Assembly: GCA_018433775.1 (NCBI GenBank)
Contig: JAHDQN010000040.1
Span: 20,587 to 84,586 of the forward strand
DNA length: 64,000 bases
DNA from: Deltaproteobacteria bacterium
GTDB taxonomy: Bacteria > Desulfobacterota > Desulfomonilia > UBA1062
Reading direction: 5' to 3'
The translations under genes and the position numbers were made by a program. The notes under the pieces are model-generated. The model was not told the DNA's origin, searched no databases, and worked only from the letters and a program-made list of their open reading frames with translations. This document shows, piece by piece, positions 2,128-46,422 of this stretch (position 1 is its first letter; every line of letters begins with the position of its first letter).

Positions 2128-2130
2128 GAT

Positions 2131-2985: not shown

Positions 2986-2995
2986 AATGCCTCCT

Positions 2996-3052: not shown

Positions 3053-3079
3053 AGCCTACCCATATAATTTTATCTGGCA

Positions 3080-3880: not shown

Positions 3881-3896
3881 AAATACTGCCCCCTAT

Positions 3897-3967: not shown

Positions 3968-4311
3968 AATTACGAATATACCATGCTCCTCTTTTCGGAA
4001 GACCTTTCTCCTGGGGGGAGAGCTCGTGAGGGCCGTGCAGGAATCAGGGCAGACTCCGTCAGTAGAAGGTGAACGTGAAGATAGAAAATGGTCTCCTCTC
4101 ATTCATTTCATGCATCGACAAGGTCCGGCCGCCATTCCTGGCGTCCGGGCAATAACCTGTGAATACGATATCATTTTTTCCGCGACAAATCCAGATGAAA
4201 GTGAAAATGCTCAAGCCGCACGGGACTGCACCGTTCATGGCCCTGCCGCTCTGTACGGGCGGTCGAGCGGGCTGAACAGACCCCGCCGGGGTTTCCGGAG
4301 GCGTTACAGCC

Positions 4312-5946
<1,635 letters not shown>

Positions 5947-22570: not shown

Positions 22571-24205
22571 TCACACCACATACCTGATCTGAAGACGCTC
22601 GGCCGCATGAAAGTCGTCGATGCCGAGCGCGTCGGACATGCCGATGGGAAGAGAGGTGGACCTTCCCATGGGCGCGAGGATCTTCTTGAGTTCGGCGTCA
22701 AAGCTCAAAAACACGTCGACCAGCCGCCCGGCCACGTCTTCGGGGTCGAGCCTGCGGTAGAGTCTGGGGTCCTGCGAGGTGATCCCCTTGGGGCATCGGC
22801 CGAGGTTGCAGATGTTGCACCGGTCCCCCTCCGAACCGACGCACCCGGCCGCCGCCTGCATGAGATATTTGCCCACCTGAACCCCGCTTGCACCGAGCAT
22901 GATGAGCGCAGCGGCATTTGCCGCCAGGTTGCCGTTCTTTCCCGCGCCTCCTCCGGCGAAGAGAGGGATCTCGTTCTGCTTGCCGATCTTCACCAGGTTC
23001 AGGTATGCGTCTCGCACATTGGCGGCGATGGGATGGCCCATGTGGTTCATGGACACGTTGTATGCCGCTCCGGTTCCCCCGTCCTCGCCGTCGATGGCCA
23101 AGGCCGCCGCGTACCGGTTGCGCGCGATGTTGTTGAGCACGGCGGTCGTGGTGCTGGTAGCCGATATCTTCGGGTACACCGGCACCCTGAAGCCCCATGC
23201 CATTGAGAGCGACTGGATCATCTTGGCCACGGACTCCTCTATGGAGTATTTGGTCTGGTGCGTGGGCGGCGAGGGCAGGCTCACCCCGGGCGGCACCCCC
23301 CTGATGGCGGCGATGAGCCCGTTCACCTTATGCCACATGAGCAGCCCGCCGTCTCCGGGCTTGGCGCCCTGGCCGTACTTGATCTCGATGGCGCAGGGGT
23401 CTTCCTTCATCTCTGGCAGGGCGTGGATGATCTCGTCCCAGCCGAAATACCCGCTCGCGATCTGGAGGATCACATACTTGAGAAACCGCGACCTGAGCAG
23501 CCGCGGCGGGCACCCGCCCTCGCCCGTGGATATCCTCACGGGCATGCCAAGCTCCTCGTTCAGATAGGCCACGCCCATCTGGAGCCCCTCCCACATGTTC
23601 GGGGAGAGTGCCCCGAACGACATGCCGCCCACGATCAGGGGATAGATCTCCCGCACCGGTGGCGCCCATCCGTCCTCTTTTGCCGAGTTGAGGATCTCCT
23701 CGGGAGGCAGGATGCGCCCCAGGAGGGTCCTGAGCTCGAACTCGTGCCTGCCGGCGTCCAGGGCCGGGTCGGTGAGCATGGAGATGCGGACGAACTTGAT
23801 GCGGTCGAGCACGCTTGCCGTGTCGTTCCGCCTGCCTCCCCGCCGCCTCGGCTCTCCGCCCTGGTTGGCATGAAACTTCAGCTTGTCGGTCTCCTCGCTC
23901 CTTACGGGGAATATGGCGGAGTTGGGGCAGACGAACGAGCACATGCCGCACCCCACGCAGGCATGTGCCGGGTCGGTTTTCTGGTCGATCCCGTAATAAA
24001 CGCGGTAGACGTTTCCCGGCCTCTCGCCCAGGCCCATGAGAACCGGCACCTCCCGCCTGCGGTGCACGCCGAGCTCGATTGCCCTCACCGGGCACACCGC
24101 AGTGCACTGTCCGCACAGGGTGCACCGGTCCCTGTCCCAGCAGACGCGCCAGGGCAGGTCCCTGGGGCTCAGTGCAGATGGGTGCAGGGTTCCCATTGGC
24201 TCCAT
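22571..24205 (-). CDS. Glutamate synthase FMN/central domain (GltB domain 2) with N-terminal 2x[4Fe-4S] ferredoxin
   Basis: From the ATG at 24205 (GGAGG RBS). Cluster motifs are CTLCGQCTAVCP and CVGCGMCSFVCP. The FMN domain shows GGMSFGALS, KPGDGGLL and FAGGGAG. It overlaps the upstream gene's end by 37 nt. Confidence 0.85.
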   Translation of the reverse strand: MEPMGTLHPSALSPRDLPWRVCWDRDRCTLCGQCTAVCPVRAIELGVHRRREVPVLMGLGERPGNVYRVYYGIDQKTDPAHACVGCGMCSFVCPNSAIFPVRSEETDKLKFHANQGGEPRRRGGRRNDTASVLDRIKFVRISMLTDPALDAGRHEFELRTLLGRILPPEEILNSAKEDGWAPPVREIYPLIVGGMSFGALSPNMWEGLQMGVAYLNEELGMPVRISTGEGGCPPRLLRSRFLKYVILQIASGYFGWDEIIHALPEMKEDPCAIEIKYGQGAKPGDGGLLMWHKVNGLIAAIRGVPPGVSLPSPPTHQTKYSIEESVAKMIQSLSMAWGFRVPVYPKISATSTTTAVLNNIARNRYAAALAIDGEDGGTGAAYNVSMNHMGHPIAANVRDAYLNLVKIGKQNEIPLFAGGGAGKNGNLAANAAALIMLGASGVQVGKYLMQAAAGCVGSEGDRCNICNLGRCPKGITSQDPRLYRRLDPEDVAGRLVDVFLSFDAELKKILAPMGRSTSLPIGMSDALGIDDFHAAERLQIRYVV

Positions 24206-25299
24206 CTCCTGACCTCCATCCGCGAGGCATCCACACAGGCGAGGTCGTATTTCATGGGCTGGAATTCGCAGTTTCCTTCCCGGACGGGAATGGCCCCGTC
24301 GAGCCCGCACATCTCGGAAGAGAAGGCGAACATCCCGGGCCTGCCTCCCACAACGCCCGGCCTGAGTTTCTTGCTGTCGTGGACCATGAAGAGTGTCTTG
24401 TCGGGCAGACACCCGATCACACAGTTGGGCCCGTCGATGGTGAGAAAACGGCAGCCGTGCTTGAGCCTTCTCAGAAACGCACTGTCCGGGTGCCTGGTCA
24501 GCTCCTCGTCCTTGAGCGGGGTGATGATGTGTTTGTAGGCATCGATCCCGAGCCCAAGCCGGTTTGCGGTGTAGTGCAGGATATGGGTGAACACCTCGGA
24601 GTCAGACTGATAGCCCGCATATCCGGGAAAACCCCGCGACATCAGATAATCCCGTATAGGCCCGAACGCGGTGTTCTCGCCGTTGGTCATGGTGGCGAAG
24701 CCCTGGAGAAAGAAGGGGTGGCAGGCATAGAGGGTAACGGCATAGTTGGTGTTCTGCCTGCCCTGGGCCATGATCACCCGCGCCTTCAGACTCTTCCGGT
24801 CGAGCCCGAGATATTCGGCTATGGCCAGGGGATCGCCTACTTCCTTGATCATGATCGTGTCCGGCCAGAAGGAAAAGACCATCATGGACCCGTCCTGCTC
24901 GCCCAGCCTCCTCAGGTCGATCCGGATCCTCATGAGCCGCGCCGCGATCTCGGCCTCGCTCAGGCCCTCCCACTCGAAAGGATACTCATACACCCGGATG
25001 AGGTACACGTCGCGTTTCGGGGTGCCCTCGGGCGGCTCCTTGGCGGGCCTGATGGAAAGCTTGAACTTGGTGAGCAGGCCCAGCTCCATCATGTAGCGAT
25101 CGAGCCTCTTGATCCCTTCCTGGGAGAAAACGCCCGAAAGGATGGGAGAACCCCTGAACTGTTCCAGGTCCCCGCCGAGGTCGGTCATGAACAGGCCGAC
25201 CCCGGAACCGTCGTGGCCTTCTTTCATGACGTCCAGGGCACGCAGGGCGACCATGGGCGAGAGCGGCTCGTTACTCGTTATGGCGAACAGACGGCACAC
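24169..25299 (-). CDS. Glutamate synthase glutamine amidotransferase subunit (class-II Ntn, GltB domain 1 type)
   Basis: I propose the GTG start at 25297-25299, which puts Cys directly after the initiator (M-CRLFAITSNEPLSP), as Ntn amidotransferases require. AAGGAGGA lies upstream. The track start at 25392 is rejected. Confidence 0.75.
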   Translation of the reverse strand: MCRLFAITSNEPLSPMVALRALDVMKEGHDGSGVGLFMTDLGGDLEQFRGSPILSGVFSQEGIKRLDRYMMELGLLTKFKLSIRPAKEPPEGTPKRDVYLIRVYEYPFEWEGLSEAEIAARLMRIRIDLRRLGEQDGSMMVFSFWPDTIMIKEVGDPLAIAEYLGLDRKSLKARVIMAQGRQNTNYAVTLYACHPFFLQGFATMTNGENTAFGPIRDYLMSRGFPGYAGYQSDSEVFTHILHYTANRLGLGIDAYKHIITPLKDEELTRHPDSAFLRRLKHGCRFLTIDGPNCVIGCLPDKTLFMVHDSKKLRPGVVGGRPGMFAFSSEMCGLDGAIPVREGNCEFQPMKYDLACVDASRMEVRRWSQWEPCTHLH

Positions 25300-25353: not shown

Positions 25354-25516
25354 TGGGTGCGGGTCCTGTTCCTTTCCGGAGCATCGGATCAATTTTATTC
25401 CATCGATTCCAGGTATTACAAAATAACATTACCCGGCCGGCACCATGTCTGCATCCGGAATTTCCCGGCGGAGCCGGTTTCCAGTATTTTCCAATAATGT
25501 TCGATCAGATATGCTT

Positions 25517-25532
25517 TGCACAATTTTGTTCC
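25517..25532. promoter_or_regulatory. Near-palindromic candidate enhancer (UAS) site
   Basis: TGCACAATTTTGTTCC matches TGAACAATATTGTACC (33006-33021) at 13 of 16 positions. It lies about 170 bp upstream of the candidate sigma-54 promoter. Confidence 0.3.
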
Positions 25533-25784: not shown

Positions 25785-27041
25785 TCAGAACTCGGTGAGC
25801 TCCGGGCCTTTCACCCCGTTGAGGAATTCCTGCACGATCCCGACCCCCCGTTTGAAGTCCGGAAGCGTGGGGGTCAGGACCGAGAGCCGGATGTAATGCG
25901 ACCAGCGGGCACCGTAGATGTCTCCGGGCGTGATTCGGATACCCTGCTCCAGCAGCCTGTCCCGGCAGATCCGGCTGGGTATGGGCGTCCTGATCCACAC
26001 GCAGGCCCCCCCCGGCTCCCACGGCGTGTTCTGTTCGAGATAGGCGCTCCGCTGGGCGAGCTCGTGCCGCAGCCGTTCGATATGCCCGGTCAGCCTCGAC
26101 GAGGTGAACACCGTGAGCAGAGAGCGCTGCAGGATTCCCGAAAGCGAGAGGTCGTTGATCTCCTTGAGATCGAGAATGCTTCTCTGCATGGATTCCGGAA
26201 AGACCGCGAACCCCATGCGCAGACCCGGGCCCAGGACGTTGGAGAGGCTCTTGATGTAGATGACCCGCCCGCGGGTATCCCTGGCCTTTAAGGGGGTGAT
26301 TCCGACAACATCGGAAAGGGGATCGTCCTCGACGATGAAGAAGTTCTTGTCGGAAGCCATGGAGACGAGATCGTCCCGCAAATCTTCCGGCATGGATCTT
26401 CCGGTGGGGATGTGGCCCTGCGGCATGGTGTAGAGCAGGCGGATATCCATGCCTTTGATCCGATCGAGATCGTCTCGGCTCGCGATGCGGGGGACGAAAA
26501 CAACCTCGGCCCCGAGTGACTCGAAGATCCGTACGGCCCCCATGTATCCGGGATCCTCAACGGCCACGGCATCGCCCTTGCTCAGCAGGGAAAGGCCAAG
26601 CAGAAAGAGGGCCTGCTGGGAGCCCGAGGTGACGATCGGGGCGGCGTCGATCCCGGAAGACCTGAGCCATTTCCCGGCCTGCTCGCGCAGGGGCTCGTAC
26701 CCCTGGGGAGGGTCGTACGCGTTGAGCCCTTCGATGGTGAGCCTGAGATGCTGGCTCACCCAGAGCATCAGCTCCTCGGGCGGGCGGATCGCCGCCATGT
26801 CGATATCGCCCCCGGTCAGACTGTGCGCCACAAAGGTGCCCGCGCCCTGCCGGCTCACGACCAGGCCCTGTTCGAAAAGATACCGGTACACGTTTTTCGC
26901 CGTCACCATGCTGATGTTTTCGCTCCTGGCCAGCTCCCTTACGCCGGGCAGCCGCTCTCCCGGCGTCCTGTCCCTGAGGATGCCGTCTGCGAGCCTCCGG
27001 GCGATCTGTTTGTACCGCATGAGATTCTCCTTTTCCATCAT
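25785..27041 (-). CDS. pdxR: MocR/GntR-family regulator with aminotransferase-like domain, PdxR-like
   Basis: The N-terminal GntR wHTH is YKQIARRLADGILRDRTPGERLPGVRELARSENISMVTAKNVYRYLFEQGLV. The C-terminus is a fold-type I aminotransferase-like domain. It is divergent from pdxS across 65 bp. Confidence 0.75.
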   Translation of the reverse strand: MMEKENLMRYKQIARRLADGILRDRTPGERLPGVRELARSENISMVTAKNVYRYLFEQGLVVSRQGAGTFVAHSLTGGDIDMAAIRPPEELMLWVSQHLRLTIEGLNAYDPPQGYEPLREQAGKWLRSSGIDAAPIVTSGSQQALFLLGLSLLSKGDAVAVEDPGYMGAVRIFESLGAEVVFVPRIASRDDLDRIKGMDIRLLYTMPQGHIPTGRSMPEDLRDDLVSMASDKNFFIVEDDPLSDVVGITPLKARDTRGRVIYIKSLSNVLGPGLRMGFAVFPESMQRSILDLKEINDLSLSGILQRSLLTVFTSSRLTGHIERLRHELAQRSAYLEQNTPWEPGGACVWIRTPIPSRICRDRLLEQGIRITPGDIYGARWSHYIRLSVLTPTLPDFKRGVGIVQEFLNGVKGPELTEF

Positions 27042-27106
27042 GACAAATAGTGATACAGTTCTCTATTATCACAATTAATGTTATATAACAATAGGAGTTG
27101 ACCAAT

Positions 27107-27994
27107 ATGAGTGATATCAGTGAAAGAATCATCGTCAACCGTGGGCTGGCACAGATGCTCAAAGGCGGGGTGATCATGGACGTGACCACGGCGGATCAGG
27201 CCCGTATCGCCGAGGATTCCGGGGCCGTGGCGGTTATGGCCCTGGAGCGTGTCCCCGCGGATATCCGCGCCCAGGGCGGTGTCGCCCGGATGAGCGACCC
27301 TGCCGTTATCCGTGCCATCCAGGAGGCAGTGACCATCCCGGTCATGGCCAAGGTGAGGATCGGCCACCTGGTCGAGGCCCAGGTGCTCCAGGCGCTGAAG
27401 ATCGACTATATCGACGAGAGCGAGGTCCTGACGCCCGCGGACGAGAGCAACCACATCGACAAGCACGCCTTCGAGGTGCCGTTCGTGTGCGGCTGCCGCG
27501 ACCTGGGAGAGGCGGCGCGCCGGATCGGCGAGGGCGCGAGCATGATCCGGACCAAGGGAGAGGCAGGCACGGGAAACGTGGTGGAGGCCGTCAGGCACAT
27601 GCGCACCCTCATGGGACAGATCCGTATGCTGCTCTCGATGCGTGAAGACGAGGTCCCGGGATTTGCCAGGGAGATCGCGGCGCCCTTCGAGGTCCTTGCC
27701 GATATCAGGAAATCAGGGGCTCTTCCCGTGGTGAACTTTGCCGCGGGCGGCGTGGCCACCCCGGCGGATGCCGCTCTCATGATGCAGCTCGGGGCTGACG
27801 GCGTGTTCGTCGGGTCGGGCATCTTCAAGTCGGGCGACCCTGCCCGGCGTGCAAAGGCCATCGTGGAGGCCGTGGCCCACTGCGACGACCCCGCCTGGAT
27901 CGCACGGGTTTCCGAAGGCCTGGGCGAGGCCATGTCCGGCCTCGACGTGCGGACCATGCCCGAGGGCGAGCGGCTTGCCGGGCGGGGGCGGTGA
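27107..27994 (+). CDS. pdxS: Pyridoxal 5'-phosphate synthase lyase subunit
   Basis: [27 protein letters not shown]...[10 protein letters not shown]...[20 protein letters not shown]. The ATG at 27107 is 9 nt after GGAG. The track uses a TTG at 27098. Confidence 0.95.
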
Positions 27995-28602
27995 TGGTGA
28001 TCGGGATACTCGCACTCCAGGGAAACGTGCGCGAGCATATGACGAACCTGAACAGACACGACGTGCAGGGACGCCCCGTTCGCCTGCCCGCCGATCTCGC
28101 CGGGATCGAGGGCCTCATCCTTCCGGGTGGTGAGAGCACCGCCATGAGGAATCTCGTCTCGTCCTCCGGGCTCGAAAAACCCGTGGGCGATCTCATCCGA
28201 CAGGGTCTGCCCGTATGGGGAACCTGCGCCGGGGTCGTACTGCTGGCCCGGGGAGGGATCTGGTCCAGCGTCGATATCACGGTGGAGCGCAATGCCTACG
28301 GCTCCCAGGTCTTCAGCCGCCTGGTGCATGGAAGCTCGGCCCTCTCGGAAACGCCGACCCCCATGGTCTTCATCCGCTCGCCCCGGATCACCTCTGCGGG
28401 GCGTGAAGTCGAAGTCCTCGCCGAGGTCGGGGGGGATGTCGTGGCTGTACGGCAGGGCAATATCCTGCTCACGACCTTTCATCCCGAGCTGGTCGACCAC
28501 AGCCCCTTCACTGCCTGTTTCATCGAAATGGTGAGCTCGGCCCGCTCGGATGAAACACCGGTCCCAGGGCACTGCCCGAAAGAGACCGGCCGGGCAGTCT
28601 GA
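27994..28602 (+). CDS. pdxT: Pyridoxal 5'-phosphate synthase glutaminase subunit
   Basis: [15 protein letters not shown]...LILPGGESTAM...WGTCAGVVLLA. The start overlaps the pdxS stop (TGATG). Confidence 0.92.
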   Translation: MVIGILALQGNVREHMTNLNRHDVQGRPVRLPADLAGIEGLILPGGESTAMRNLVSSSGLEKPVGDLIRQGLPVWGTCAGVVLLARGGIWSSVDITVERNAYGSQVFSRLVHGSSALSETPTPMVFIRSPRITSAGREVEVLAEVGGDVVAVRQGNILLTTFHPELVDHSPFTACFIEMVSSARSDETPVPGHCPKETGRAV

Positions 28603-28707: not shown

Positions 28708-30228
28708 TCAGCTCTTTTTCGCCTTGAACCTGTCGACGTCGATCCCGTATTTCTCCACCTTGTACTGGATGATGCGCTTGGTGGTGCCCAGGACCCGCGC
28801 GGCCTTGCTCTGGTTTCCCTTTGCATCCTTGAGGGCATCGACGATAAGGGAGCGCTCGTAGGCGCCGATGAGGCTGGAGAGCTGGCCCTGCTTCTTCTTC
28901 GCCGGAGCCACCACCTTCATCTGCAGCGAGGGCGGCAGGTGCGTGCTGTCGATGGTGTCGCCGCCCGCGAGCAGCACGGCCCGCTCGATGCAGTTTTCCA
29001 GCTCCCGGACGTTCCCGGGCCAGTGATAGGCGAGGAGCGAGTCGATGGCAGGGGTCGAGATCCGCTTGATGTGTTTGCCGAACTCGTGAGCGTATTTCTC
29101 CACGAAGTAGTCGGCCAGGAGCAGGATATCGCCTCCCCGCTCCTTGAGGGCCGGCATGTAGACCGGAAACACGTTGAGACGGTAGTAGAGGTCGGAGCGG
29201 AAACGCCCCGAGGCCGCGTCCTGCTCCAGGTCGCGGTTCGTGGCGGCGATGATGCGCACGTTGACCTTGACCGTCCGGGTGGTGCCCAGGGGTTGGAACT
29301 GCCGCTCCTGGATCACGCGCAGCAGCTTGGCCTGCGCCAGGGGCGAGAGCTCGCCCACCTCGTCAAGGAAGATGGTGCCCCCGTGTGCCTCCTCGAAACG
29401 GCCCCTCCGGCGCTGGCTCGCACCGGTGAACGCGCCTTTCTCGTGCCCGAAAAGCTCGCTCTCGATCAGGGTGTCGGGCATGGCGGCGCAGTTCACCTCG
29501 ATGAAGGGTCCCGCGGCGCGGGGTGAGTTACGGTGAATGGCCCTGGCCACCAGCTCCTTTCCGGTGCCGGTCTCGCCGTGGATGAGAACCGTGGTGTTGG
29601 AATCCGCGACCTGGGAGATCAGCCCGAAGATCTCCTTCATGCCTTTCGAGTTGCCTACGATCTCGGAGGCCGGCCTCTGGGTCCTGCCCAGGATGTTTTT
29701 CAGCCGCCGGTTCTCTTCTTCGATTGCGCGCGTGTGCACCGCCTTGGCGATCAGGCCCGCCACCTCGGAGAGGTATCGGATCTCGTAGTCCTGGCTGTCG
29801 ACCTGCCGGGCCACCTTGTCGGCGGAGAGCACGCCCACGACCTTGCCGTCGTAGATGATGGGCACGCAGAGGAACGAGAGCTCGGAGCGGTCCAGGAACT
29901 TTCTGGCCCCGGTGCGGTCGAGAAAATGCTCCTCCTTGCCCAGGTTCGCGATCACCATGGGCTTGCCGGTCTGGGCCACCTGGCCCGTAATCCCCTCGCC
30001 CGGTTTGTAGGTGATGTCGAGGCCCTCGATGTCCACACCGTGGGCCAGATCCAGGATCGCCTCCCCCGTGTCCCGGTCGAGGATGGAGATCATGCCGCGG
30101 TCCATCCCGGTCTTCTCGCTCAGAGTCTCGAGCACCTGTTCGAGCTGTTCCCGCAAGTCAAGGGGGGTAGCGAGAATCCGGGCCAGATCGTGGAGAACAT
30201 CCAGGTCTTCGTACTCAAAAAGTGTCAT
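28708..30228 (-). CDS. Sigma-54-dependent transcriptional activator with N-terminal GAF domain (NifA-like architecture)
   Basis: The GAF region is DRGMISILDRDTGEA...ITGQVAQTGKPMVI. The AAA+ domain shows VLIHGETGTGKE and ESELFGHEKGAFTGA. The C-terminal Fis-type HTH is NQSKAARVLGTTKRIIQYKVEKYGI. Confidence 0.88.
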   Translation of the reverse strand: MTLFEYEDLDVLHDLARILATPLDLREQLEQVLETLSEKTGMDRGMISILDRDTGEAILDLAHGVDIEGLDITYKPGEGITGQVAQTGKPMVIANLGKEEHFLDRTGARKFLDRSELSFLCVPIIYDGKVVGVLSADKVARQVDSQDYEIRYLSEVAGLIAKAVHTRAIEEENRRLKNILGRTQRPASEIVGNSKGMKEIFGLISQVADSNTTVLIHGETGTGKELVARAIHRNSPRAAGPFIEVNCAAMPDTLIESELFGHEKGAFTGASQRRRGRFEEAHGGTIFLDEVGELSPLAQAKLLRVIQERQFQPLGTTRTVKVNVRIIAATNRDLEQDAASGRFRSDLYYRLNVFPVYMPALKERGGDILLLADYFVEKYAHEFGKHIKRISTPAIDSLLAYHWPGNVRELENCIERAVLLAGGDTIDSTHLPPSLQMKVVAPAKKKQGQLSSLIGAYERSLIVDALKDAKGNQSKAARVLGTTKRIIQYKVEKYGIDVDRFKAKKS

Positions 30229-30334: not shown

Positions 30335-32923
30335 CTATCCTTCAAAAAAGCACACCACCTTCTGCTGCACCACATTCGAGACGATTCGCACCTTTTTGTC
30401 GCGTACATCGAAGACCCGGACCACGTCCCGGTATCTTCTCTCCTCGGGCAGAACCTTTTCCAGGATATCGGTAAGACCGTCCTGCCACGATGAGTTGTAG
30501 TACACATCCTCTTTCCAGGGGAAAATGGCCACGAAGAAGATCCGGTTCTCCACGAGGTCCTGGAAAAAGTGCGTGCCGTAGGAGAGCTCGGGCATGAGGT
30601 TGCCCTCGATGGATGCGATCTCTCCCAGGACCGTCATATTGCAGATCTCGGAGAAGTGTACCGGCACACCCAGGGAGGGCGTGGTGGTCCCCCACCTGCC
30701 GGGCCCCAGGAGCATGGTGGACAGGTCGGTGCGTACGGGAGCCTGCCGGTTCAGGATTCCCACCACCCGGCCGATGTCGTACTTCCGCTGCAGCGGGAGA
30801 TCCATATAGGCACGGGGCTCCACAGAGATGATGCGGTCGATGGACTGCGAGATGCTGCCTCCCATGAAGTTGCCGTTCATGCGGAACAGGACGTTCCTGT
30901 CGTCCACCTGCCCGGGAAACTCCACGGGCCTCTCCTCGCCGATGGTCTGCAGCGGCCGGCACTGGACCAGATTTATCCGGAATTCGTCCGGGCCCGTGAA
31001 ATTGATCGTGAACTCGATGTCGACGGGATAATCGTAGCCTTTCTCCAAAACCTTCATCATGGATTGCATCAGGGAGGGGAAATCGGAGCTGGAGAGGAAG
31101 TCGTCAAAGGTGATGATCCATGCATCGTGATCCTCCCTGCCGTACTCCCTGAGCCTTTGGCTCGCCTCGTCGTCGAACACAGCGATGCTCTGGAGGGGCA
31201 TGTCGATGCGCTCGCGGGCGAGACCTGCAAACGCACGGGTCTGGAGCTCGTTGTCGTGGATGTTGATCACGTCCACGCTGTGCTGGGAGAAGGCGCGCAG
31301 TTCGTCCATTCCGGCAAAGGGCCGTTTCAGGGGGTCGTCCAGGGCCACCAGCCGGGGATAGTCCCCTTCCACCCGGTCCACGGCCCGAGTTCCCAGACCG
31401 AGCACCATCCTGAGCATGCCTGCCTTCGGGTCCATGCCCTCCTTCCAGACAAAGGTGTTGTAGGACACCCCCACCCCGCCGATATCCGGGAAGAAATACG
31501 GCCCGCGGTAGGAGCCGGACACCCGCTGGACCAGCAGGGCCATCTGCTCGTCCTGGGATTCCAGCCCCCGCTGCCTGCGGTAGATAAGGGCGCTCTCGTC
31601 CATGGTGCTGGCGAAAATCCGCTTCACCGCAGCTTCGAACCCGGCATAGCGCTCCTCGGGCGAGCCCTGGTTCGCGCAGAAGACGCTCTCATACTTGCCG
31701 GCAAAGGCGTTGCCGAAGGAGTCTTCCAGCAGCGAGCTGGAGCGCACGATGATGGGCGACTGTCCGAAGTACTCGATAATCTGGTAGAAGTGCTCCTTGA
31801 TGTCGTCCGGGAACACCCCCTCGCGCATCCTCTCTGCGAGCACCGGCGCCATGCTGAAAAACCCCTCGGGCGTCTTCTGCTCCATGCGCAGCTTCCAGCA
31901 GCCGTTGTTGACGAGATAGGAATAAAAGACGTCGGAGCCGATGTAGAACGAGTCGTGAGGCTCCAGACGGTTGTCCCAGTCCCTGCCCGTGTCCTCGGCC
32001 AGGAGCTTCCGGGAGAGCAGGAGCCCCACGGTCTTGCCGCCGATGAAGCCCGATCCGATGAGGCGCGCCTTGATGTCCAGAAGATCCTCCAGACTCAGGT
32101 GCTCCTTGACCAGGGCGGACATCCGCGGATCGCGGGTGATCATGAGGTCGCAGAGCAGAGAGACCATCCGCCGCCGCTCCTGCTCCCCGGCATTGGACGG
32201 GGTCAGGCCCTCGGCCTCCATGAAGAGCCTGTCCCAGTAATCCAGGTTCCTCCTCGAGCTCTCCGTGAACCGCGACATGTGCGTGAAGAGCTTCGAGGCG
32301 TCAACGCTGCTGGTCACGGGCATGAACCTGTCCCCCTTTTCCAGGTGGGGCAGGAACATGGTGGGAGAATAGCGTTTCCAGACCTTCAGCGGCTGGACAT
32401 AGAAATCGCTGTCACAGTTGTAGGCATCCAGCAGAACCTGGGTGGTCTCCCTGATCCGCGCCACGGTTGCATAGGAATGACGGTTTCTCACCAGGGCGAA
32501 GTAGGCGACGGTCTTGAGCTCGAAGAGGTAGGGACAGGTGATGAGAAAGAAGTTTCCGATCATCAGGTCCGTGGCCCATGCCGAGAGCAGATCGGAAAGG
32601 CTGTCGAACACATAGTACGTCCCTTCCCCCTCGCCGGTGATGATCGTGTGCACCTGGGTGGAGAACGTCTCGAACCCCTGGTTCGAATCCAGGCGATGGA
32701 TGGTGAGACCTTCCCGGGGCCGCACCAGGGGCTCGTGCCGGGCGAAACGCATGTAGACGACCCGGTTGCGGTCATCGAGCGCCCTGGCCACGAACCGCTC
32801 CGCGATGCCCTGATAATCGCGGATGTCGTCAACCTGCCAGACCACGTTGTCGCCCGGCCGCAGCCAGTCGATGACGGGATCGAGGCCTTCGAGACCTGTA
32901 CTGACGTGATCGATCGCCTTCAT
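30335..32923 (-). CDS. PEP/pyruvate-binding (PPDK_N, ATP-grasp) domain protein with degenerate RecA/KaiC-like N-terminal domain
   Basis: The PPDK_N signature is SPIIVRSSSLLEDSFGNAFAGKYESVFC. The N-terminus TGLEGLDPVIDWLRPGDNVVWQVDD resembles KaiC/RAD55-like ATPases but has no GxxxxGK[ST] P-loop. I prefer the ATG at 32923 to the TTG at 32983. Confidence 0.65.
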   Translation of the reverse strand: MKAIDHVSTGLEGLDPVIDWLRPGDNVVWQVDDIRDYQGIAERFVARALDDRNRVVYMRFARHEPLVRPREGLTIHRLDSNQGFETFSTQVHTIITGEGEGTYYVFDSLSDLLSAWATDLMIGNFFLITCPYLFELKTVAYFALVRNRHSYATVARIRETTQVLLDAYNCDSDFYVQPLKVWKRYSPTMFLPHLEKGDRFMPVTSSVDASKLFTHMSRFTESSRRNLDYWDRLFMEAEGLTPSNAGEQERRRMVSLLCDLMITRDPRMSALVKEHLSLEDLLDIKARLIGSGFIGGKTVGLLLSRKLLAEDTGRDWDNRLEPHDSFYIGSDVFYSYLVNNGCWKLRMEQKTPEGFFSMAPVLAERMREGVFPDDIKEHFYQIIEYFGQSPIIVRSSSLLEDSFGNAFAGKYESVFCANQGSPEERYAGFEAAVKRIFASTMDESALIYRRQRGLESQDEQMALLVQRVSGSYRGPYFFPDIGGVGVSYNTFVWKEGMDPKAGMLRMVLGLGTRAVDRVEGDYPRLVALDDPLKRPFAGMDELRAFSQHSVDVINIHDNELQTRAFAGLARERIDMPLQSIAVFDDEASQRLREYGREDHDAWIITFDDFLSSSDFPSLMQSMMKVLEKGYDYPVDIEFTINFTGPDEFRINLVQCRPLQTIGEERPVEFPGQVDDRNVLFRMNGNFMGGSISQSIDRIISVEPRAYMDLPLQRKYDIGRVVGILNRQAPVRTDLSTMLLGPGRWGTTTPSLGVPVHFSEICNMTVLGEIASIEGNLMPELSYGTHFFQDLVENRIFFVAIFPWKEDVYYNSSWQDGLTDILEKVLPEERRYRDVVRVFDVRDKKVRIVSNVVQQKVVCFFEG

Positions 32924-33005
32924 GGAATTATCCCGTAGCACATTTCGATTCACTATTGAAGCCTGTTCATAGTTTTTCAACAATATTTAGCCCATTTATA
33001 TTCTT

Positions 33006-33021
33006 TGAACAATATTGTACC
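33006..33021. promoter_or_regulatory. Near-palindromic candidate enhancer (UAS) site upstream of amtB
   Basis: TGAACAATATTGTACC, with the perfect 10-bp palindrome ACAATATTGT at 33009-33018. A weaker copy, TCAACAATATTTAGCC, sits at 32977-32992. The site lies about 75 bp upstream of the sigma-54 promoter. Confidence 0.3.
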
Positions 33022-33086
33022 ATATACTTTTTGCCATTTGCAGAATTATACCTTATTTATCATAAAGTTATACCTTCCTGGGCAGC

Positions 33087-33102
33087 TGGCACCCCCCTTG
33101 CT
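33087..33102 (+). promoter_or_regulatory. Sigma-54 (-24/-12) promoter of amtB-glnK-glnD
   Basis: TGGCACCCCCCTTGCT is a perfect match to TGGCAC-N5-TTGCW. It lies about 47 nt upstream of the amtB ATG. Confidence 0.7.
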
Positions 33103-33148
33103 CACCCTGAACAAGCATAAGCCTTGTGATGAAAGGAGACCCATTTTT

Positions 33149-34354
33149 ATGATTTCTTCAGGTGATACCGCTTGGATGCTTGTCGCAACCGCACTGGTCA
33201 TGCTCATGACGCCGGGGCTCTCCCTGTTCTACGGAGGCCTCGTGCGCTCGAAGAACGTTCTGGGCACCATGATGCAGAGCTTCATCTGCCTGGGGCTGGT
33301 TTCCGTCCTCTGGATAGCTTATGGTTACAGCCTGGCCTTCTGCGGCGATGCGGGTGGAGTCATCGGCACCTTCCGGTGGGTCGGCCTTAAGGGGGTGGGG
33401 ATCGATGCCGGGCCTTATTCCGACACCATACCCCATCTGCTCTTCGCGGCCTTCCAGCTCATGTTCGCCATCATCACCCCGGCTCTGATCACCGGCGCGT
33501 TTGCCGAACGAATGAAATTCTCCGTGTTTCTCCTCTTTGTCATCCTCTGGAGCACGTTCGTGTATCTTCCGGTGTGCCACTGGGTCTGGGGCGGAGGCTG
33601 GCTGGGCAGGCTGGGAGCGCTCGACTTTGCCGGCGGCACGGTCATCCACGTCAACTCCGGCACGGCCGCACTGATGGCGGTCCTCGTCATCGGGAGGCGC
33701 AAAGGCTACAAAACCCAGCCCATCTATCCCCACAACCTTCCGCTCACCGTGCTCGGCGCATCGCTTCTGTGGTTCGGATGGTTCGGGTTCAATGCGGGCA
33801 GCGCCCTGGCAGCAAACGGAACCGCCACCCTGGCGTTCTTTACCACACAGGTCGCCACTGGCACCGCGGCGCTCTCGTGGATCCTGGCCGAAAAGATCAT
33901 CCGGGGAAAACCCACCACCTTGGGAGCGGTGTCCGGGGCGGTTGCCGGCCTGGTAGCCATCACCCCGGCGGCAGGGTTCGTGGGACCTGTCTCGGCGATC
34001 ATCATCGGCTTCGTGGCGGGAATCCTCTGCTATCTGGCGGTACTGCTCAAGGAGCGGATCGGGTACGACGACTCTCTCGACGTGGTGGCTGTCCACGGCA
34101 TCGGAGGTCTCTGGGGGGCGCTCGCCACCGGTCTGTTCGCTTCGGTGGGGGCCAGCGGCCTGTTCTTTGGGAATGCCCATCAGTTCTTCGTCCAGATAAT
34201 CGGTGCAGGCAGCGCGATCATCTACTCGGGCATTGTCACCACGATCATCCTCCTGGTGCTGAAATACACCGTGGGCCTGCGGGTGAGCGAGGAAGAGGAG
34301 ATCCAGGGCCTGGATGTGAGCCAGCACAACGAATCCGGATACGCTATCCGCTGA
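33149..34354 (+). CDS. amtB: Ammonium transporter
   Basis: 401 aa from the ATG at 33149 (AAAGGAGA RBS): MISSGDTAWMLVATALVMLMTPGLSLFYGGLVR...DFAGGTVIHVNSG...VHGIGGLWGA. The track's upstream extension is rejected. Confidence 0.95.
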   Translation: MISSGDTAWMLVATALVMLMTPGLSLFYGGLVRSKNVLGTMMQSFICLGLVSVLWIAYGYSLAFCGDAGGVIGTFRWVGLKGVGIDAGPYSDTIPHLLFAAFQLMFAIITPALITGAFAERMKFSVFLLFVILWSTFVYLPVCHWVWGGGWLGRLGALDFAGGTVIHVNSGTAALMAVLVIGRRKGYKTQPIYPHNLPLTVLGASLLWFGWFGFNAGSALAANGTATLAFFTTQVATGTAALSWILAEKIIRGKPTTLGAVSGAVAGLVAITPAAGFVGPVSAIIIGFVAGILCYLAVLLKERIGYDDSLDVVAVHGIGGLWGALATGLFASVGASGLFFGNAHQFFVQIIGAGSAIIYSGIVTTIILLVLKYTVGLRVSEEEEIQGLDVSQHNESGYAIR

Positions 34355-34432: not shown

Positions 34433-34789
<357 letters not shown>

Positions 34790-34816: not shown

Positions 34817-37300
34817 ATGGACGAACCGATGGACAGCGCTGTGAGCGGCCCTGGTCTCGCCCGGGAACTCTCCTCCCGGGCGGACCGGCATATCCGCACC
34901 CTCTTTGACTCGTGCCGACCCCAGGCAATGAGCAGATGGAGCATCGTCGCACTGGGAGGATACGGGAGGCAGGAGATCTGTCCGTTTTCCGATCTCGACA
35001 TCCTCTTTCTCCTGGAGAAAAAGCCTGCGGCACAGGAGATCGAGAACACCCTGAAGGAAACGCTCTACCCCCTGTGGGATGCCGGATTCAACGCCAGCTA
35101 CAGCGTCAGGACCATACACGAGGTTCTCCTTGACGCCCGGTCGGATTTTTTCTTCCATACCTCGCTTCTCGACGCGCGCCACATCTGCGGCTCGGAGACG
35201 GCATACCGGAAGTGCATGCGTGTCCTCGCCTCAGACCGGTCTCTCAACGACGGCAGACAGTTCATCTCCCGGCTGTCGTTCCATACCCGGAAAAGACACG
35301 AGAAGTTCGGTGACGCCTCCTATTTCCTCGAGCCGCACATCAAAGACGGCAGGGGAGGATTGAGAGATCACCAGAGTATCGTCTGGATAGAAAAGGTCCT
35401 GAAGAACGGCCGCAGCGGATTCGCCCCGCTCATCATTCCCGCCGACCGCAGGGAGCTCGACGCCGCAGCGGAATTCATGCTGAAATCCCGGTTCATGCTC
35501 CACAGGCTCGCCGAGGGAAAAACAGACCGGCTGCACCTGGAATACCAGGAGGACCTCGCCGGGATATTGGGATATGGCCCGCGTTCGGGGGAGAGCCCGG
35601 TGGAGGTTTTCCTGCGGGAGTTTCACCTCAGGGCCGTAACCGTACGCACCGTGCTCGACACCATGCTGCGTTTTCTGGACCGGCCCCGGGGCATCCGGTC
35701 TTTCCTGAACAGGAAGAAATGCGATGGACGGTTCATCCTGTTCTCCGGCCTGTTGTCGTTTTTCCGCCCCGAGGAATTGAAAGACGACCCGCTCATCGTC
35801 ATGTCCGCCTTTGTGAAAATGGCGCGCGAGGGCCTTTCCCTGACGCCGGAGGCACGATCGCAGATTAAGAGCCTGAGCGAATACGACACCCCTCTGAAGG
35901 AGAGCGTCGAGGGGTGTTCGGACCTGCTGCACATCCTCCGGAGCCCGGGTGCGGAAAACACCCTGACCTCGATGCTCGAAACCGGTGTTCTGGAGCAGCT
36001 CGTCCCGGAATTCAGCGCAATACGCGGCAGGACCATCTTCGACGTTTACCATACCCATACCGTGGACCTGCACAGCATCCGCACCGTATGCGAGCTGAAC
36101 GGGCTGAAGGACGATGAACAGGGTGTCCTTGCGCGTGTCACCGATCTCGAGGTCCTGTACTTCAGCGCCTTTTTCCACGACATTGGCAAGGGTTATTCCA
36201 AGCCCCATACCGACTCCGGCGCGGAAATCGTCCGCGCCGTGGCCCCGCGGTTCGGGTTCGATCATGACCGGACCGAGCTTGCAGCCTTTCTCGTGAAAAA
36301 CCACCTGATCATGCCGGAGCTCGCTTACGGGCGCGATCTTTCCGAGGAAAAGGTGGTCAGCTCTCTTGCCCGGCTGGTCGCGACCCCCCGGAGGCTCTCC
36401 ATGCTGTACCTCCTGAGCGTGGCGGACTCGCGTGCAACCGGGCCCGAAGCCTGGAACGAATGGAAAGCCGCACTCCTCCGCGAGCTCTATACCCGGACGA
36501 TCAACATCCTTGAGAAAGGGCTGTTCAAAGATCCCGAAAACGCCATGCGCCTGGAGGAGAAATGGCATCGGCTCATCCGGGAGGCAGAGGGTAACGAAAA
36601 CATGTCGGGCCGGCTCTGGGCATTACCCCAGGCGTACATCCTGGCCGGGAATCTGAAAGACATCAAGCGTCACCTGGCCGTAAGCTCAACTCTCTCCGGA
36701 AGGGACGACCTGATCGTGGAGACAGACCGCCGCGCGGGCCATGTTCTCGTCACCTTCATCACCCGCGATCGTCCCGGTCTGTTCTCGCTGCTCGCAGGCC
36801 TTCTCGCCATCAACCGCCTCGAGATCATCTCCGCAAAGATATTTACCTGGTACGACGGTACCGTGATAGACACATTCATGGTAATCACGCCATGGCCCGA
36901 CTACCGGGGATTCAACTCCATGCACCATCAGTTCAGGGACGTTCTCTCCGGGAAGATCAGGCTGGAAGACCGGATCATGCGGATCAAGCCTCTGCGCACC
37001 ACCGGTGACCCCGGAACGGTTCCCTCCGAAGATGCCGCATCCGTTGCTATCGACAACGACACCTCCGACTTCTTCACCATCATCCATGTGCAGGCATGCC
37101 GCAGGGCCGGGCTCATTCACGATCTTTCCCGCGCCCTCAGCTCTCTCGATCTAGACATTCACCGGGCTTTCCTCACGCGCACGTCCGATCTCGTGACCGG
37201 TGTTTTCTACGTGGTGGACAAGGATGGGGAAAAACTATGGGGGGAAAAGGAACAAAACGAGGTTCTCCGGGCTATTCGCGAGGTGATCGGTACCGGTTGA
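34817..37300 (+). CDS. glnD: [Protein-PII] uridylyltransferase/uridylyl-removing enzyme
   Basis: 827 aa. The nucleotidyltransferase motif is GGYGRQEICPFSDLDILFL, the HD domain shows FFHDIGKG, and there are two C-terminal ACT-like regions. Confidence 0.9.
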   Translation: MDEPMDSAVSGPGLARELSSRADRHIRTLFDSCRPQAMSRWSIVALGGYGRQEICPFSDLDILFLLEKKPAAQEIENTLKETLYPLWDAGFNASYSVRTIHEVLLDARSDFFFHTSLLDARHICGSETAYRKCMRVLASDRSLNDGRQFISRLSFHTRKRHEKFGDASYFLEPHIKDGRGGLRDHQSIVWIEKVLKNGRSGFAPLIIPADRRELDAAAEFMLKSRFMLHRLAEGKTDRLHLEYQEDLAGILGYGPRSGESPVEVFLREFHLRAVTVRTVLDTMLRFLDRPRGIRSFLNRKKCDGRFILFSGLLSFFRPEELKDDPLIVMSAFVKMAREGLSLTPEARSQIKSLSEYDTPLKESVEGCSDLLHILRSPGAENTLTSMLETGVLEQLVPEFSAIRGRTIFDVYHTHTVDLHSIRTVCELNGLKDDEQGVLARVTDLEVLYFSAFFHDIGKGYSKPHTDSGAEIVRAVAPRFGFDHDRTELAAFLVKNHLIMPELAYGRDLSEEKVVSSLARLVATPRRLSMLYLLSVADSRATGPEAWNEWKAALLRELYTRTINILEKGLFKDPENAMRLEEKWHRLIREAEGNENMSGRLWALPQAYILAGNLKDIKRHLAVSSTLSGRDDLIVETDRRAGHVLVTFITRDRPGLFSLLAGLLAINRLEIISAKIFTWYDGTVIDTFMVITPWPDYRGFNSMHHQFRDVLSGKIRLEDRIMRIKPLRTTGDPGTVPSEDAASVAIDNDTSDFFTIIHVQACRRAGLIHDLSRALSSLDLDIHRAFLTRTSDLVTGVFYVVDKDGEKLWGEKEQNEVLRAIREVIGTG

Positions 37301-43632: not shown

Positions 43633-46422
43633 TCACAGCGCCCCGGCAATGCGCTTAAGGGCCGCCGGGACATCCTCGTCCAGGATGTGGAGGCGCAGCA
43701 CCCTCCTTCCCTTTTCCTTCAGCGCGTTCCAGTCGCCCAGGGCCTGGGCGCTCTCCAATGTTCCGAACGAGATGGACGATTGCCATGACCCGGGCTCGTC
43801 AGGAATCGCGAGATCATCCGAAACCTGCCGGGTGATCTGGACGAAGAGCCCCCTGCCCTCGTCGCCCTTGTGGAGCTGGCCCGTGGAGTGGAGGTAACGG
43901 GGCCCGTACCCGCTCATGACCGCGATCCTGCGGGTGTCCCTGATCTTCGTGCGGAACCCGTCGAGGGCTTCGCCGATCTCATCCGTTGGCGGCAGATACG
44001 CCTGTATCGCTACGTATGAGGCATCGCCAGCATCTTTCAGAAATGATGCCAGGGCATCGGGCAGGGTTCCTGCCCGCACGTCGCCGTACACGCTGATGTG
44101 CTGGTCCTTCAGCGCCGGGGCGTGCCCGGGGAGCGAACCGGTCTTCCGGAACAGCTCCACCGCCTCTGTCGCTCGTTTCTTCGCGGCCTCCACGTCGGGC
44201 TGATCAAAGGGGTTGACGCCGAGAATGTGCCCTGCCACGGCAGTGGCTGTCTCCCAGAGGTAGAACTGCCCGCCGATATCGCACAGATCGTGGAGCCCGA
44301 TGCGCACCACGGGGTGCCCGGCCTTTTCGAGCCCGTCCAGGATCTTGTCGTGGGTGTGATCGCCTTCAAGCCGCAGGCTCACGAAGAGCCGGTCGTCCCG
44401 GTACTGCCCGGGCGATCCCGGGCGTTCGCGCACGATGGGGACGATGCCCTTGCCCTGCTTGCCCGTGCTCTCGGCAATGAGCTGCTCCACCCAGTCTCCG
44501 AACGAGGCGATCCCGGGCGACAGGAAAAAGGTCGCCTTGTTCCTGCCCGCCAGGGCCGCCTCACCGAGGATCGCGCCGAGGACGCCCCCGGAGTTTGCGC
44601 CCTTCGGGGTGCAGGTTCCGGCCTGGCAGTTCTCGGTCATGACCAGGGCCCTGTCCAGGAGCGACTTGACGTCCACTCCCATGAGCGCCGCAGGCACGAG
44701 CCCGAAATGGGAGAGGGCCGAGTATCTGCCGCCCAGATCGGGTTCGTTGAGGAAGATGTTCCTGAAATTGTACTTCCGGGCCGTTTCCATCAGGGGGGAG
44801 CCCGGATCCGTGATCGCGACGAAGTGCTCCCCGGCATTGTCCGCGCCCAGGGCGTCGGCGGTCACGGTGAAGAAGTATCTGAACAGCGAGAGCGTCTCCA
44901 CCGTGGTGCCCGATTTGGTCGATACGATGAACAGGGTCGTGGCCGGGTCGACCTTCTGGAATTCGGCGGCAAGAAAGTCGGGGTCGGTGCTGTCGATGAC
45001 GTTAAGGTCGAGATATCCCTCGCGCACGCCGAAGATCGACCGCATCACGTCGGGGGCCAGCGATGACCCGCCCATGCCCAGAAGGATCGCGCGGGTGTAT
45101 CCCTTCGATGCCATGTCCCGCGCGAACTGCTCCATCCCGTCCGCGTGATCGAGAATGTCTGCTGGCAGGGAGAGCCAGGCCAGCCGGTTGGTGATTTCCC
45201 CGGGGCTCTCGCTCCACACCGTGTGGTCGTGCGCGTAGATCCGGGACATGACCCCGGCCTTGTCCATCTCCTGAAGGCGGGTATCCACCCTGGCCTGAAG
45301 GTCTCCCAGGGCGGCTGTCATCTGATGCCACCCGGAGATGATGGCCCGCCTCTTGGCCGCGATGCTGTCCATGAGCGAACGGAACGACCCCGCGAACAGA
45401 TCAACGCCGTCTTTCTGCAGCTTGGAGGTCACGGCTTCGAGGTCGATGCCCGCCTGTGCGAGCCGCTCGATCTGCGCGAGGGCCTCCTCAATTCCCGTGC
45501 CCAGCGTGCTCTCCGTCTTTCCGTGGTCGAGAAAGGCCTGGAGCGTGGCTGGTGGAAGGGTGTTGACCGTGTGGGGGCCGATGAGCTCGTCCACGTAGAG
45601 CGTGTCCGGATATTTCGGGTTCTTGGTCCCGGTGCTCGCCCACAGCAGCCTCTGGGGACGCGCTCCCTGCTGCTCGAGCGCCTGCCACCGATCACCGGAG
45701 AAGATCCCGCCGAAAAGCCCGTAGGCAACCTTGGCGTTGGCCACCGCGATCTTCCCCGTGAGGTCGCTCAGGGAATGTCTTTCGAGCTCGGGATCGAGCG
45801 AGGTGTCAACCCTGCTCACGAAAAACGAGGCCACCGAGGCCACGCGGGCGAGGTCACCGCCCGAGGCAAGATATTTTTCCAGGCCGCGCAGGTAGGCGTG
45901 AGCCACCTCCTCGTAGCGCCCCACGGAAAAGAGCAGGGTCACGTTGACGTTGATGCCTTCGGCGATCAGGGTTTCGATCGCAGGCACCCCTTCTGCGGTG
46001 GCAGGGACCTTGATCATGATATTCGGACGCCCCAGGGCCGCAAAGAGCCGCCTGGCTTCGTGGACGGTCTGTTCGGTGTCGTAGGCCAGCACCGGGCTCA
46101 CCTCGATGCTCACATACCCGTCCAGACCCTTTGTGTCGTCATAGACCTTCCGGAACAGGTCCGCTGTCCGGGCGATGTCGTCGAGCGCGAGGTGCTCGTA
46201 GATCTCCTCGATCGACAGGCCGTCCCGCACCAGGGCCGTGAGATAGTCATCGTAATCCGAGCTGCCCGCTATGGCCTTTTCGAAGATCGTGGGGTTTGAC
46301 GTGACTCCGCGGATGCCCTGATCGATGAGTGACTGAAGCTCGCCCGAGGTGATCAGCGACCTGCGGATGTAGTCGAACCATATCGCCTGCCCTATGTGGG
46401 CCAATGTATGGAGTTTCGCCAT
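43633..46422 (-). CDS. Bifunctional transaldolase / glucose-6-phosphate isomerase
   Basis: 929 aa. The N-terminal transaldolase shows IWFDYIRRSL...GVTSNPTIFEKAI. The C-terminal PGI shows ILLGMGGSSLAPDV and STKSGTTVET. Confidence 0.88.
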   Translation of the reverse strand: MAKLHTLAHIGQAIWFDYIRRSLITSGELQSLIDQGIRGVTSNPTIFEKAIAGSSDYDDYLTALVRDGLSIEEIYEHLALDDIARTADLFRKVYDDTKGLDGYVSIEVSPVLAYDTEQTVHEARRLFAALGRPNIMIKVPATAEGVPAIETLIAEGINVNVTLLFSVGRYEEVAHAYLRGLEKYLASGGDLARVASVASFFVSRVDTSLDPELERHSLSDLTGKIAVANAKVAYGLFGGIFSGDRWQALEQQGARPQRLLWASTGTKNPKYPDTLYVDELIGPHTVNTLPPATLQAFLDHGKTESTLGTGIEEALAQIERLAQAGIDLEAVTSKLQKDGVDLFAGSFRSLMDSIAAKRRAIISGWHQMTAALGDLQARVDTRLQEMDKAGVMSRIYAHDHTVWSESPGEITNRLAWLSLPADILDHADGMEQFARDMASKGYTRAILLGMGGSSLAPDVMRSIFGVREGYLDLNVIDSTDPDFLAAEFQKVDPATTLFIVSTKSGTTVETLSLFRYFFTVTADALGADNAGEHFVAITDPGSPLMETARKYNFRNIFLNEPDLGGRYSALSHFGLVPAALMGVDVKSLLDRALVMTENCQAGTCTPKGANSGGVLGAILGEAALAGRNKATFFLSPGIASFGDWVEQLIAESTGKQGKGIVPIVRERPGSPGQYRDDRLFVSLRLEGDHTHDKILDGLEKAGHPVVRIGLHDLCDIGGQFYLWETATAVAGHILGVNPFDQPDVEAAKKRATEAVELFRKTGSLPGHAPALKDQHISVYGDVRAGTLPDALASFLKDAGDASYVAIQAYLPPTDEIGEALDGFRTKIRDTRRIAVMSGYGPRYLHSTGQLHKGDEGRGLFVQITRQVSDDLAIPDEPGSWQSSISFGTLESAQALGDWNALKEKGRRVLRLHILDEDVPAALKRIAGAL

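Follow-up and report, generated by a model that had tools for sequence, protein, structure and literature searches.

A probable sigma-54 enhancer-type control region of amtB-glnK-glnD and a neighbouring NifA-like candidate activator in a Desulfomonilia-type genome

The stretch of 64,000 nucleotides analysed here (the window; positions 20,587 to 84,586 of contig JAHDQN010000040.1 from a Deltaproteobacteria bacterium) carries the ammonium transporter gene amtB in front of glnK and glnD. The region 32977-33102 upstream of amtB is very probably a sigma-54 enhancer-type control region of this operon, driven by a NifA-like activator encoded nearby. Sequence comparison shows four conserved elements, namely two predicted activator sites, an integration host factor (IHF)-like box and a -24/-12 promoter, together with their geometry and a link between the site motif and the putative activator's family. 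The spacer in which they lie (32924-33148, 225 bp) has a G+C content of 37-42% versus about 60% for the genome and splits two divergent units: amtB-glnK-glnD on the plus strand and, on the minus strand, a gene for a PPDK_N-like protein of 862 aa followed by the activator gene. An exact-sequence look-up of the activator matched no record, and the lineage of the locus was instead traced via this PPDK_N-like protein; loci are given below as L numbers. It is identical in one record, 96% identical in L163 and 93% in L162, both with the same gene order, and 72-76% identical in L164-L167, of which L166 and L167 are labelled Desulfomonilia bacterium. The metagenome contig L083 encodes an activator and an AmtB that are 79% and 74% identical, respectively.

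The promoter TGGCACCCCCCTTGCT (TGGCAC-N5-TTGCT; 33087-33102, plus strand) matches the sigma-54 pattern TGGCAC-N5-TTGCW at 16 of 16 positions, has its GG and GC 10 nt apart, and is the sole match without mismatch within the 64 kb. An earlier, sequence-only reading of this DNA had noted a perfect -24/-12 promoter shortly before the amtB start, which we can confirm; the distance to the ATG (33149) is 46 nt, and AGGAG is found at 33134-33138. Taking the C of the GC doublet as -12, transcription of amtB would start at about 33113, with a leader of about 36 nt. No Rfam family and no terminator was found in this leader, so that no leader RNA or attenuator was seen. With one mismatch allowed, the window contains two sigma-54 matches while 1.5 are expected, and the count is therefore not significant alone; both matches are correctly oriented and precede the starts of nitrogen genes by 38-46 nt. 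The amtB promoter is kept in L163, L162, L164, L166, L083, and L167, either as TGGCACCnCCCTTGCT or as TGGCACACCTGTTGCT. Since an intact enhancer-binding protein is encoded in the window, the presence of sigma-54 in the host genome is implied.

Upstream of the promoter, two activator sites are predicted on the plus strand. The proximal site TGAACAATATTGTACC (33006-33021) includes the core palindrome ACAATATTGT (33009-33018) and is centred at about -100, and the distal site TCAACAATATTTAGCC (32977-32992), centred at about -129, starts 29 bp upstream of it, matches 8 of the 10 core positions, and has an intact half-site ACAAT and a 3' half reading AGCC(C). A palindrome with a weaker copy at a distance of 29 bp had already been described from the letters, and both withstood the comparison. 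The proximal palindrome is kept as ACAwTATTGT in L163, L162, L164, L166, and L083, its start being 78 bp from the TGGCAC in the window versus 79 bp in L083, while the copy is kept as gAACAATwwTyAGCCC in four relatives (L163, L162, L164, and L166), where 29-30 bp separate it from the proximal site. Because of this conservation, we consider the weaker copy, including its non-palindromic AGCCC half, a real element. A reading of the palindromes as ArgR- or NtcA-like was dropped, as the spacing is 29 bp and not 21 bp and the arrangement is GTA-N5-TAC and not GTA-N8-TAC; it is also at odds with the palindrome's link to the activator gene.

The IHF-like box TATCATAAAGTTA (33058-33070, plus strand) fits the consensus WATCAANNNNTTR with one mismatch and is centred at about -49. 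Boxes centred at -49/-50 occur in the window, L083, L084, and L087; by sequence reading, L163 and L162 display the perfect consensus, L164 and L166 differ by one mismatch each, and L167 carries a box as well. The form conserved across relatives, TATCAnnnnGTTA, fits WATCAANNNNTTR. It is this positional conservation that supports the box, the pattern alone being at chance frequency in the window; IHF may be involved at 33058-33070. Tandem repeats of TTATACCTT, which the sequence-only reading had placed at about 33046-33076, are indeed present on the plus strand at 33046-33054 and 33068-33076, but they are not conserved: the first copy is absent in L163, L162, L164, L166, and L083. As it is lost already in L163, with its 96% identical PPDK_N-like protein, and as the second copy overlaps the 3' end of the IHF-like box, TTATACCTT was rejected as a functional repeat and is not regarded as a separate element. 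Chance is the best account of this repeat, and the conserved element within the stretch is the box.

Across seven related genomes the four blocks, i.e., distal site, proximal palindrome, IHF-like box, and -24/-12 promoter, are in register, while the DNA between them diverges. A global MAFFT alignment of the spacer with that of L083 was uninformative, and an anchor-based comparison and closer relatives were used instead. L083 revealed three sites at 30-bp steps, and site centres in related promoters are at -110 and -140. Centres at -100/-130 or -110/-140 together with a box at -50 correspond to classical enhancer geometry.

A second control region of this kind is predicted in front of a split glutamate-synthase (glt) operon on the minus strand. 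Its sigma-54 promoter TGGCACGGATTTCGCT (25353-25338) lies 38 nt before the GTG start codon (25299), and a putative pair of activator sites (25488-25532), with ACAAAATTGT at 25529-25520 and ACATTATTGG at 25500-25491, is centred at about -198 and -168, the two being 29 bp apart. Only two exact ACA[AT]4TGT palindromes exist in the 64 kb, ACAATATTGT at 33009 and ACAATTTTGT at 25520 (on the minus strand ACAAAATTGT), and both are found no more than 250 bp upstream of the two best sigma-54 promoters, those of amtB and glt; with each upstream region shuffled, the joint probability of both is about 3.5e-5. Each exact palindrome is accompanied by a weaker partner exactly 29 bp away, the glt partner matching 9 of 10 core positions, and about 1% of the positions in the two upstream regions match the core as well as these partners do. 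The pattern TGnACAATwTTGTnCC, as proposed from the letters, fits both strong sites. The glt two-site array and its promoter are kept in L164, L167, and L001, the promoter of L164 being identical. No classical NifA site (TGT-N10-ACA) was found in the amtB and glt control regions.

The first glt gene (24169-25299, minus strand) encodes 377 aa beginning with V-C-R-L-F, i.e., with the N-terminal nucleophile Cys of an amidotransferase. Its product gave no Pfam or NCBIfam match at E <= 0.001; it is 70% identical in L001, and genes of 376-397 aa without a Pfam match occupy the equivalent position in L164 and L167. Presumably, it is a divergent amidotransferase subunit of glutamate synthase. Downstream of the glt promoter, a run of glutamine-making or -using genes extends along one strand (4312-25299, minus), comprising three split glutamate-synthase genes, glnA, carA, a gene for a 1243-aa GlmS-like protein (SIS plus amidotransferase), a phosphoglucosamine-mutase-like gene, a NagB-like gene, carB, and the gene for CTP synthase.

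The candidate cognate activator is a 506-aa protein of GAF-AAA+-HTH_8 architecture (28708-30228, minus strand). The sequence-only reading had pointed to the activator of the divergent operon as candidate regulator. This is supported, as the palindrome tracks the activator gene across phyla, with the correction that the gene is the second of its operon, behind the PPDK_N-like gene (30335-32923, minus strand). A domain scan bore out the further claim that a GAF domain replaces the NtrC-type receiver. The GAF domain is of the NifA/Nlh1 type, Walker A (GETGTGKE), GAFTGA, and Walker B (DEVGE) motifs are intact, and a CXXXXC motif is absent; judged by its sequence, the protein looks functional. The best match of solved structure is A. 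vinelandii NifA, with E = 1e-109 over residues 8-498.

The link between motif and activator emerged from 18 loci with full-length activator relatives (43-69% identical) in deltaproteobacterial, spirochaete, acidobacterial, verrucomicrobial, and Bacteroidales genomes. In these, ACA[AT]4TGT occurs 24 times within 11.2 kb of activator-gene flanks versus 4 times in the remaining 204 kb, a roughly 110-fold enrichment, and neighbouring sites are 29-31 bp apart in six loci (L001, L003, L004, L007, L008, and L012). Control loci of classical NifA or of the D. vulgaris activator DVU1949 type (L019-L022) contained zero palindromes. The orthologues neighbour amtB-glnK (L002, L011, and L016), amtB alone (L012), amtB-glnK-glnD (L083), glnD (L007), glnA (L004), a type III glutamine synthetase gene with gltB (L013), gltB (L014), or split glt genes (L001). 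In the planctomycete locus L168, the activator gene, a hypothetical gene, amtB, a PII gene, and glnA follow in this order; this locus also has a perfect sigma-54 promoter and a pair of palindromes with a spacing of 29 bp. Among 23 unrelated metagenomic amtB loci with a sigma-54-like promoter, seven have the palindrome within 400 bp (shuffles: mean 0.17, maximum 2). In two loci, L106 (about 5786-5860) and L110 (about 400-560), palindromes lie between a perfect sigma-54 promoter and amtB, i.e., downstream of the promoter, where they could serve repression or a second promoter.

It is hardly conceivable that palindromes, repeat, and IHF-like box all arose by chance in an AT-rich spacer, beside a sigma-54 match that is either genuine or itself accidental. 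At a G+C content of 37-42%, short AT-rich motifs occur frequently, and the window counts of the sigma-54 and IHF patterns, as well as of a matrix from Desulfovibrionales sites described below, are at chance level, but the four blocks keep their register in relatives with otherwise diverged spacers, and these are not near-identical copies, their neighbouring proteins being 72-96% identical. The joint shuffle probability given above and the enrichment of the motif upstream of amtB and around the activator gene in other loci likewise speak against chance.

The sites might instead be mainly operators for autoregulation of the divergent PPDK_N-like/activator operon, with an incidental position relative to amtB. 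They lie 54-98 bp before the ATG of that operon at 32923 and overlap a weak minus-strand sigma-70-like match, and in L002, L003, L006, L008, L009, L014, and L168 the palindrome stands just upstream of the activator's own gene. However, in L164 and L166, where the intergenic region measures about 420 bp, the sites stay equally far from the amtB promoter and are more than 250 bp away from the divergent gene; the same pair precedes glt, where no divergent regulator gene is present, and no minus-strand sigma-54 promoter was found in the spacer. We therefore regard autoregulation as the main function as quite improbable, while a dual role of the sites for amtB and the divergent operon is possible.

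Under the favoured reading of an enhancer-type control region, sigma-54 RNA polymerase would sit on TGGCAC-N5-TTGCT as a closed complex, and the NifA-like activator, whose gene lies 3 kb away on the minus strand, would bind as dimers to the sites centred at about -100 and -129. With the two sites about three helical turns apart, the bound dimers would nucleate an active ATPase ring, which a bend at the IHF-like box at about -49 would carry to the polymerase, ATP hydrolysis then opening the promoter. The glt-glnA operon would be driven by the same activator from its equivalent site pair. The GAF domain probably reports nitrogen limitation via 2-oxoglutarate and/or GlnK; going by what is established for NifA proteins, 2-oxoglutarate and/or PII would be the most likely input. 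Tyr51 is kept in GlnK and GlnD is encoded in the same operon, and if the signal were GlnK with a modification state set by GlnD, the operon would form a feed-forward loop. The circuit type as such is already known, whereas no earlier study of this regulator family and lineage is known.

In enterobacteria, the two-component system NtrB/NtrC controls glnAp2 and glnK-amtB, with two strong sites about three helical turns apart near -110/-140. The window resembles this system in its sigma-54 promoters for amtB/glnK and the glutamine synthetase and glutamate synthase genes and in the PII/GlnD module of the target operon, but its gene order amtB-glnK-glnD is unlike that of enterobacterial NtrC targets. 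An assignment of the activator to NtrC was rejected, as a GAF domain replaces the receiver, no histidine kinase is encoded nearby, and the DNA motif is different; a search for the NtrC-type site TGCACC-N5-GGTGCA in the control region yielded none, the best match having four mismatches and being the promoter itself. Classical NifA acts from upstream TGT-N10-ACA sites at IHF-assisted nif promoters. With it, the activator shares the GAF-AAA+-HTH architecture with GAFTGA, the sigma-54 promoter, upstream sites, and the IHF-like box; the differences are the assimilation-gene targets, the missing NifL, CXXXXC motif, and TGT-N10-ACA sites, and the fact that no nif genes were seen in the window. A classification as classical NifA was rejected as well, since the activator scores 518.7 bits with TIGR01817, below the cut-off of 528.85, and falls outside the clade of L020-L022.

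The closest parallel in function is a regulon that Kazakov et al. 2015 predicted from comparative genomics alone, the nitrogen regulon of the one-component activator DVU1949 in D. vulgaris (PMC4641369). Its targets include DVU1231-1233, encoding an ammonium transporter, PII, and a probable uridylyltransferase behind a sigma-54 promoter, and further glutamine synthetase and glutamate synthase genes (PMC4641369). The 98 listed sites are 16-bp palindromes with the consensus TTTACAAATTTGTAAA and an ACA-N4-TGT core, often paired at 30-32 bp (PMC4641369); in the literature searched, DVU1949 is not mentioned beyond Kazakov et al. 2015. The window shares with this regulon a one-component sigma-54 activator, the ACA-N4-TGT core, paired sites, and the amt-PII-glnD, glutamine synthetase, and glutamate synthase targets, while the motif flanks differ, reading TGnACAAT..TTGTnCC in the window. 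The earlier interpretation, which combined sigma-54, palindrome, and GAF-type activator, is supported by all the comparative evidence, with the addition that motif core and amt-PII-glnD target had already been predicted for DVU1949 (PMC4641369). A matrix built from the 98 sites, which come from Desulfovibrionales, gave one site per window promoter with a score of 13.4 (the proximal one for amtB); no other position in the window scores as high, and both sites exceed the 10th percentile of the training sites.

Orthology to DVU1949 was nevertheless rejected, as only 13 of 42 residues of the DNA-binding domain are identical and the DVU1949-like protein of L019 belongs to a separate clade. The DNA-binding domain of DVU1949 shares 25 of 42 residues with L019 and resembles that of classical NifA, and in a neighbour-joining tree L019 groups with classical NifA, apart from the clade of the window. 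Non-orthology was judged from the 42-residue DNA-binding domain and from L019 in this tree, which was built without the activator of L106. The ACA-N4-TGT core may be common to several NifA-related families with differing recognition helices; for DVUA0143, a second Desulfovibrionales activator that is AnfA/VnfA-like and a predicted nitrogenase regulator, the assigned motif is CGACA-N4-TGTCG (PMC4641369 supplement).

These relationships also bear on the idea that the sigma-54 promoter is real and the palindromes are bound by another regulator encoded elsewhere, be it a response regulator of the NtrC type, a different enhancer-binding protein, or a protein that represses nitrogen genes. The visible DNA amounts to 64 kb of a genome, the activator's DNA-binding domain is closer to DVU0569, which has a different predicted motif, than to DVU1949 with its similar one, and L164-L166 have sites without an adjacent activator gene. 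Against this stand the roughly 110-fold enrichment of the palindrome in the flanks of activator orthologues across several phyla, its absence from the classical NifA and DVU1949-like control loci, and the lack of a TGCACC-N5-GGTGCA site; site positions from -100 to -200 suit activation better than repression. We consider another regulator unlikely.

Two further systems are comparable. In Leptospira interrogans, EbpA, a GAF-containing enhancer-binding protein other than NtrC, has been reported in experiments to activate amtB via sigma-54 (PMC12655853, citing Hu et al. 2017); it is described as FhlA-like with two GAF domains (PMC12655853), while the activator of the window has one. Geobacter possesses with GnfL/GnfM a deltaproteobacterial sigma-54-dependent nitrogen regulon without classical NifA (PMC2995071). 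GnfM is a two-component response regulator, in contrast to the GAF-type activator here, and Geobacter glnK and amtB carry terminator/antiterminator leaders (PMC2995071), none of which was seen in the amtB leader here. Going by these comparisons, the system of the window would function in the manner of the DVU1949 regulon and of NtrC at glnAp2, but it belongs to none of the DVU1949, NifA, and NtrC families.

Several points weigh against control of amtB-glnK-glnD by the neighbouring activator. The distal site is not palindromic, and the conserved half AGCCC might be recognised by a different factor or form part of the divergent promoter. Window-wide, the sigma-54 and IHF patterns are not more frequent than by chance, and 2 matches to the DVU1949 matrix were observed versus 2.4 expected from block shuffles; since this count does not rise above expectation and a score of only -0.5 is obtained for the weak copy at 32977, the matrix is not discriminating across the window. 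The few identical residues in the DNA-binding domains of the activator and DVU1949 contrast with their matching motif cores. In L164-L166 the sites lack an adjoining activator gene, whose presence in those genomes would have to be assumed, and neither rpoN nor the IHF genes lie in the window. Finally, transcription start, activator binding, and signal are predictions.

All three genes of the amtB operon lie on the plus strand. AmtB (401 aa; 33149-34354) matches PF00909 with 441 bits and TIGR00836, GlnK (112 aa; 34451-34789) is a PII protein matching PF00543 whose T-loop Tyr51 is found within YRGAEY, and GlnD (827 aa; 34817-37300), the PII uridylyltransferase, reaches 571.5 bits with TIGR01693, which is over the cut-off of this model. 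No plus-strand terminator was found from amtB to past glnD. The scanned open reading frames of the window included no ntrB, as had been stated before, and likewise no ntrC, rpoN, or nif genes. The interval 25785-28602, which separates the glt control region from the activator gene, contains a MocR/GntR-aminotransferase regulator gene divergent from pdxS-pdxT in the usual PdxR-type arrangement, an order that is kept in L162 and L163. Elsewhere in the window, a 929-aa protein in which a transaldolase and a phosphoglucose isomerase domain are fused is encoded at 43633-46422 (minus strand), adjoining a glucokinase gene (46572-47576). Positions 1-4000 form a low-GC island (34-42% versus about 60% G+C) with open reading frames that encode, among others, a DUF4145 protein, a BRCT-containing RNase_T exonuclease, and two products without a Pfam match; this island was probably acquired horizontally, and one chance match of the palindrome search falls into it, at 1874.

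The PPDK_N-like protein, encoded by the first gene of the divergent operon, was modelled with a mean predicted local distance difference test score (pLDDT) of 83, revealing a KaiC/RecA-like N-domain without Walker A, an ATP-grasp domain of the rifampin-phosphotransferase/phosphoenolpyruvate-synthase type, and a C-domain. Pfam gave no matches on its N- and C-terminal thirds. The family has a length of about 860 aa and is 59-60% identical across phyla (loci L162-L170). In six Desulfomonilia-like loci, its gene and amtB-glnK-glnD are divergently oriented, and in a planctomycete it adjoins amtB, glnA, and the genes for a PII protein and a GAF-type activator; a variant that carries an N-terminal GAF fusion is encoded after carA-guaA-carB. 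The protein is possibly a nitrogen-linked kinase or signal transducer. A wider and rather doubtful extension would see in the activator an unnamed multi-phylum family with a single GAF domain that acts as a master switch of ammonium assimilation without NtrBC, partnered by the 860-aa protein, whose KaiC-like domain would be a pseudo-ATPase, as a new transducer or modifier of nitrogen or carbon status, in a role like that of NifL or of a glutamine-directed kinase. The single-GAF family itself comprises members in Desulfomonilia/Syntrophales relatives, Spirochaetes, Acidobacteria, Verrucomicrobia, Bacteroidales, and Planctomycetes.

These findings leave the accepted view of sigma-54 promoter function as it is. 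For the reading of genomes, a NifA-like gene alone is no evidence of nitrogen fixation, as the clade described here adjoins, and probably controls, genes of ammonium uptake and of glutamine synthetase and glutamate synthase. Attention is also drawn to a large, uncharacterised family of proteins encoded time and again beside these nitrogen genes, and this co-conserved KaiC-like/ATP-grasp protein together with the multi-phylum activator clade is the less ordinary lead. For nitrogen control in poorly studied anaerobes, e.g., Desulfomonilia and Syntrophus-like bacteria, motif, geometry, targets, and candidate regulator provide a concrete regulon model, which appears transferable to Spirochaetes, Acidobacteria, Verrucomicrobia, and Planctomycetes.

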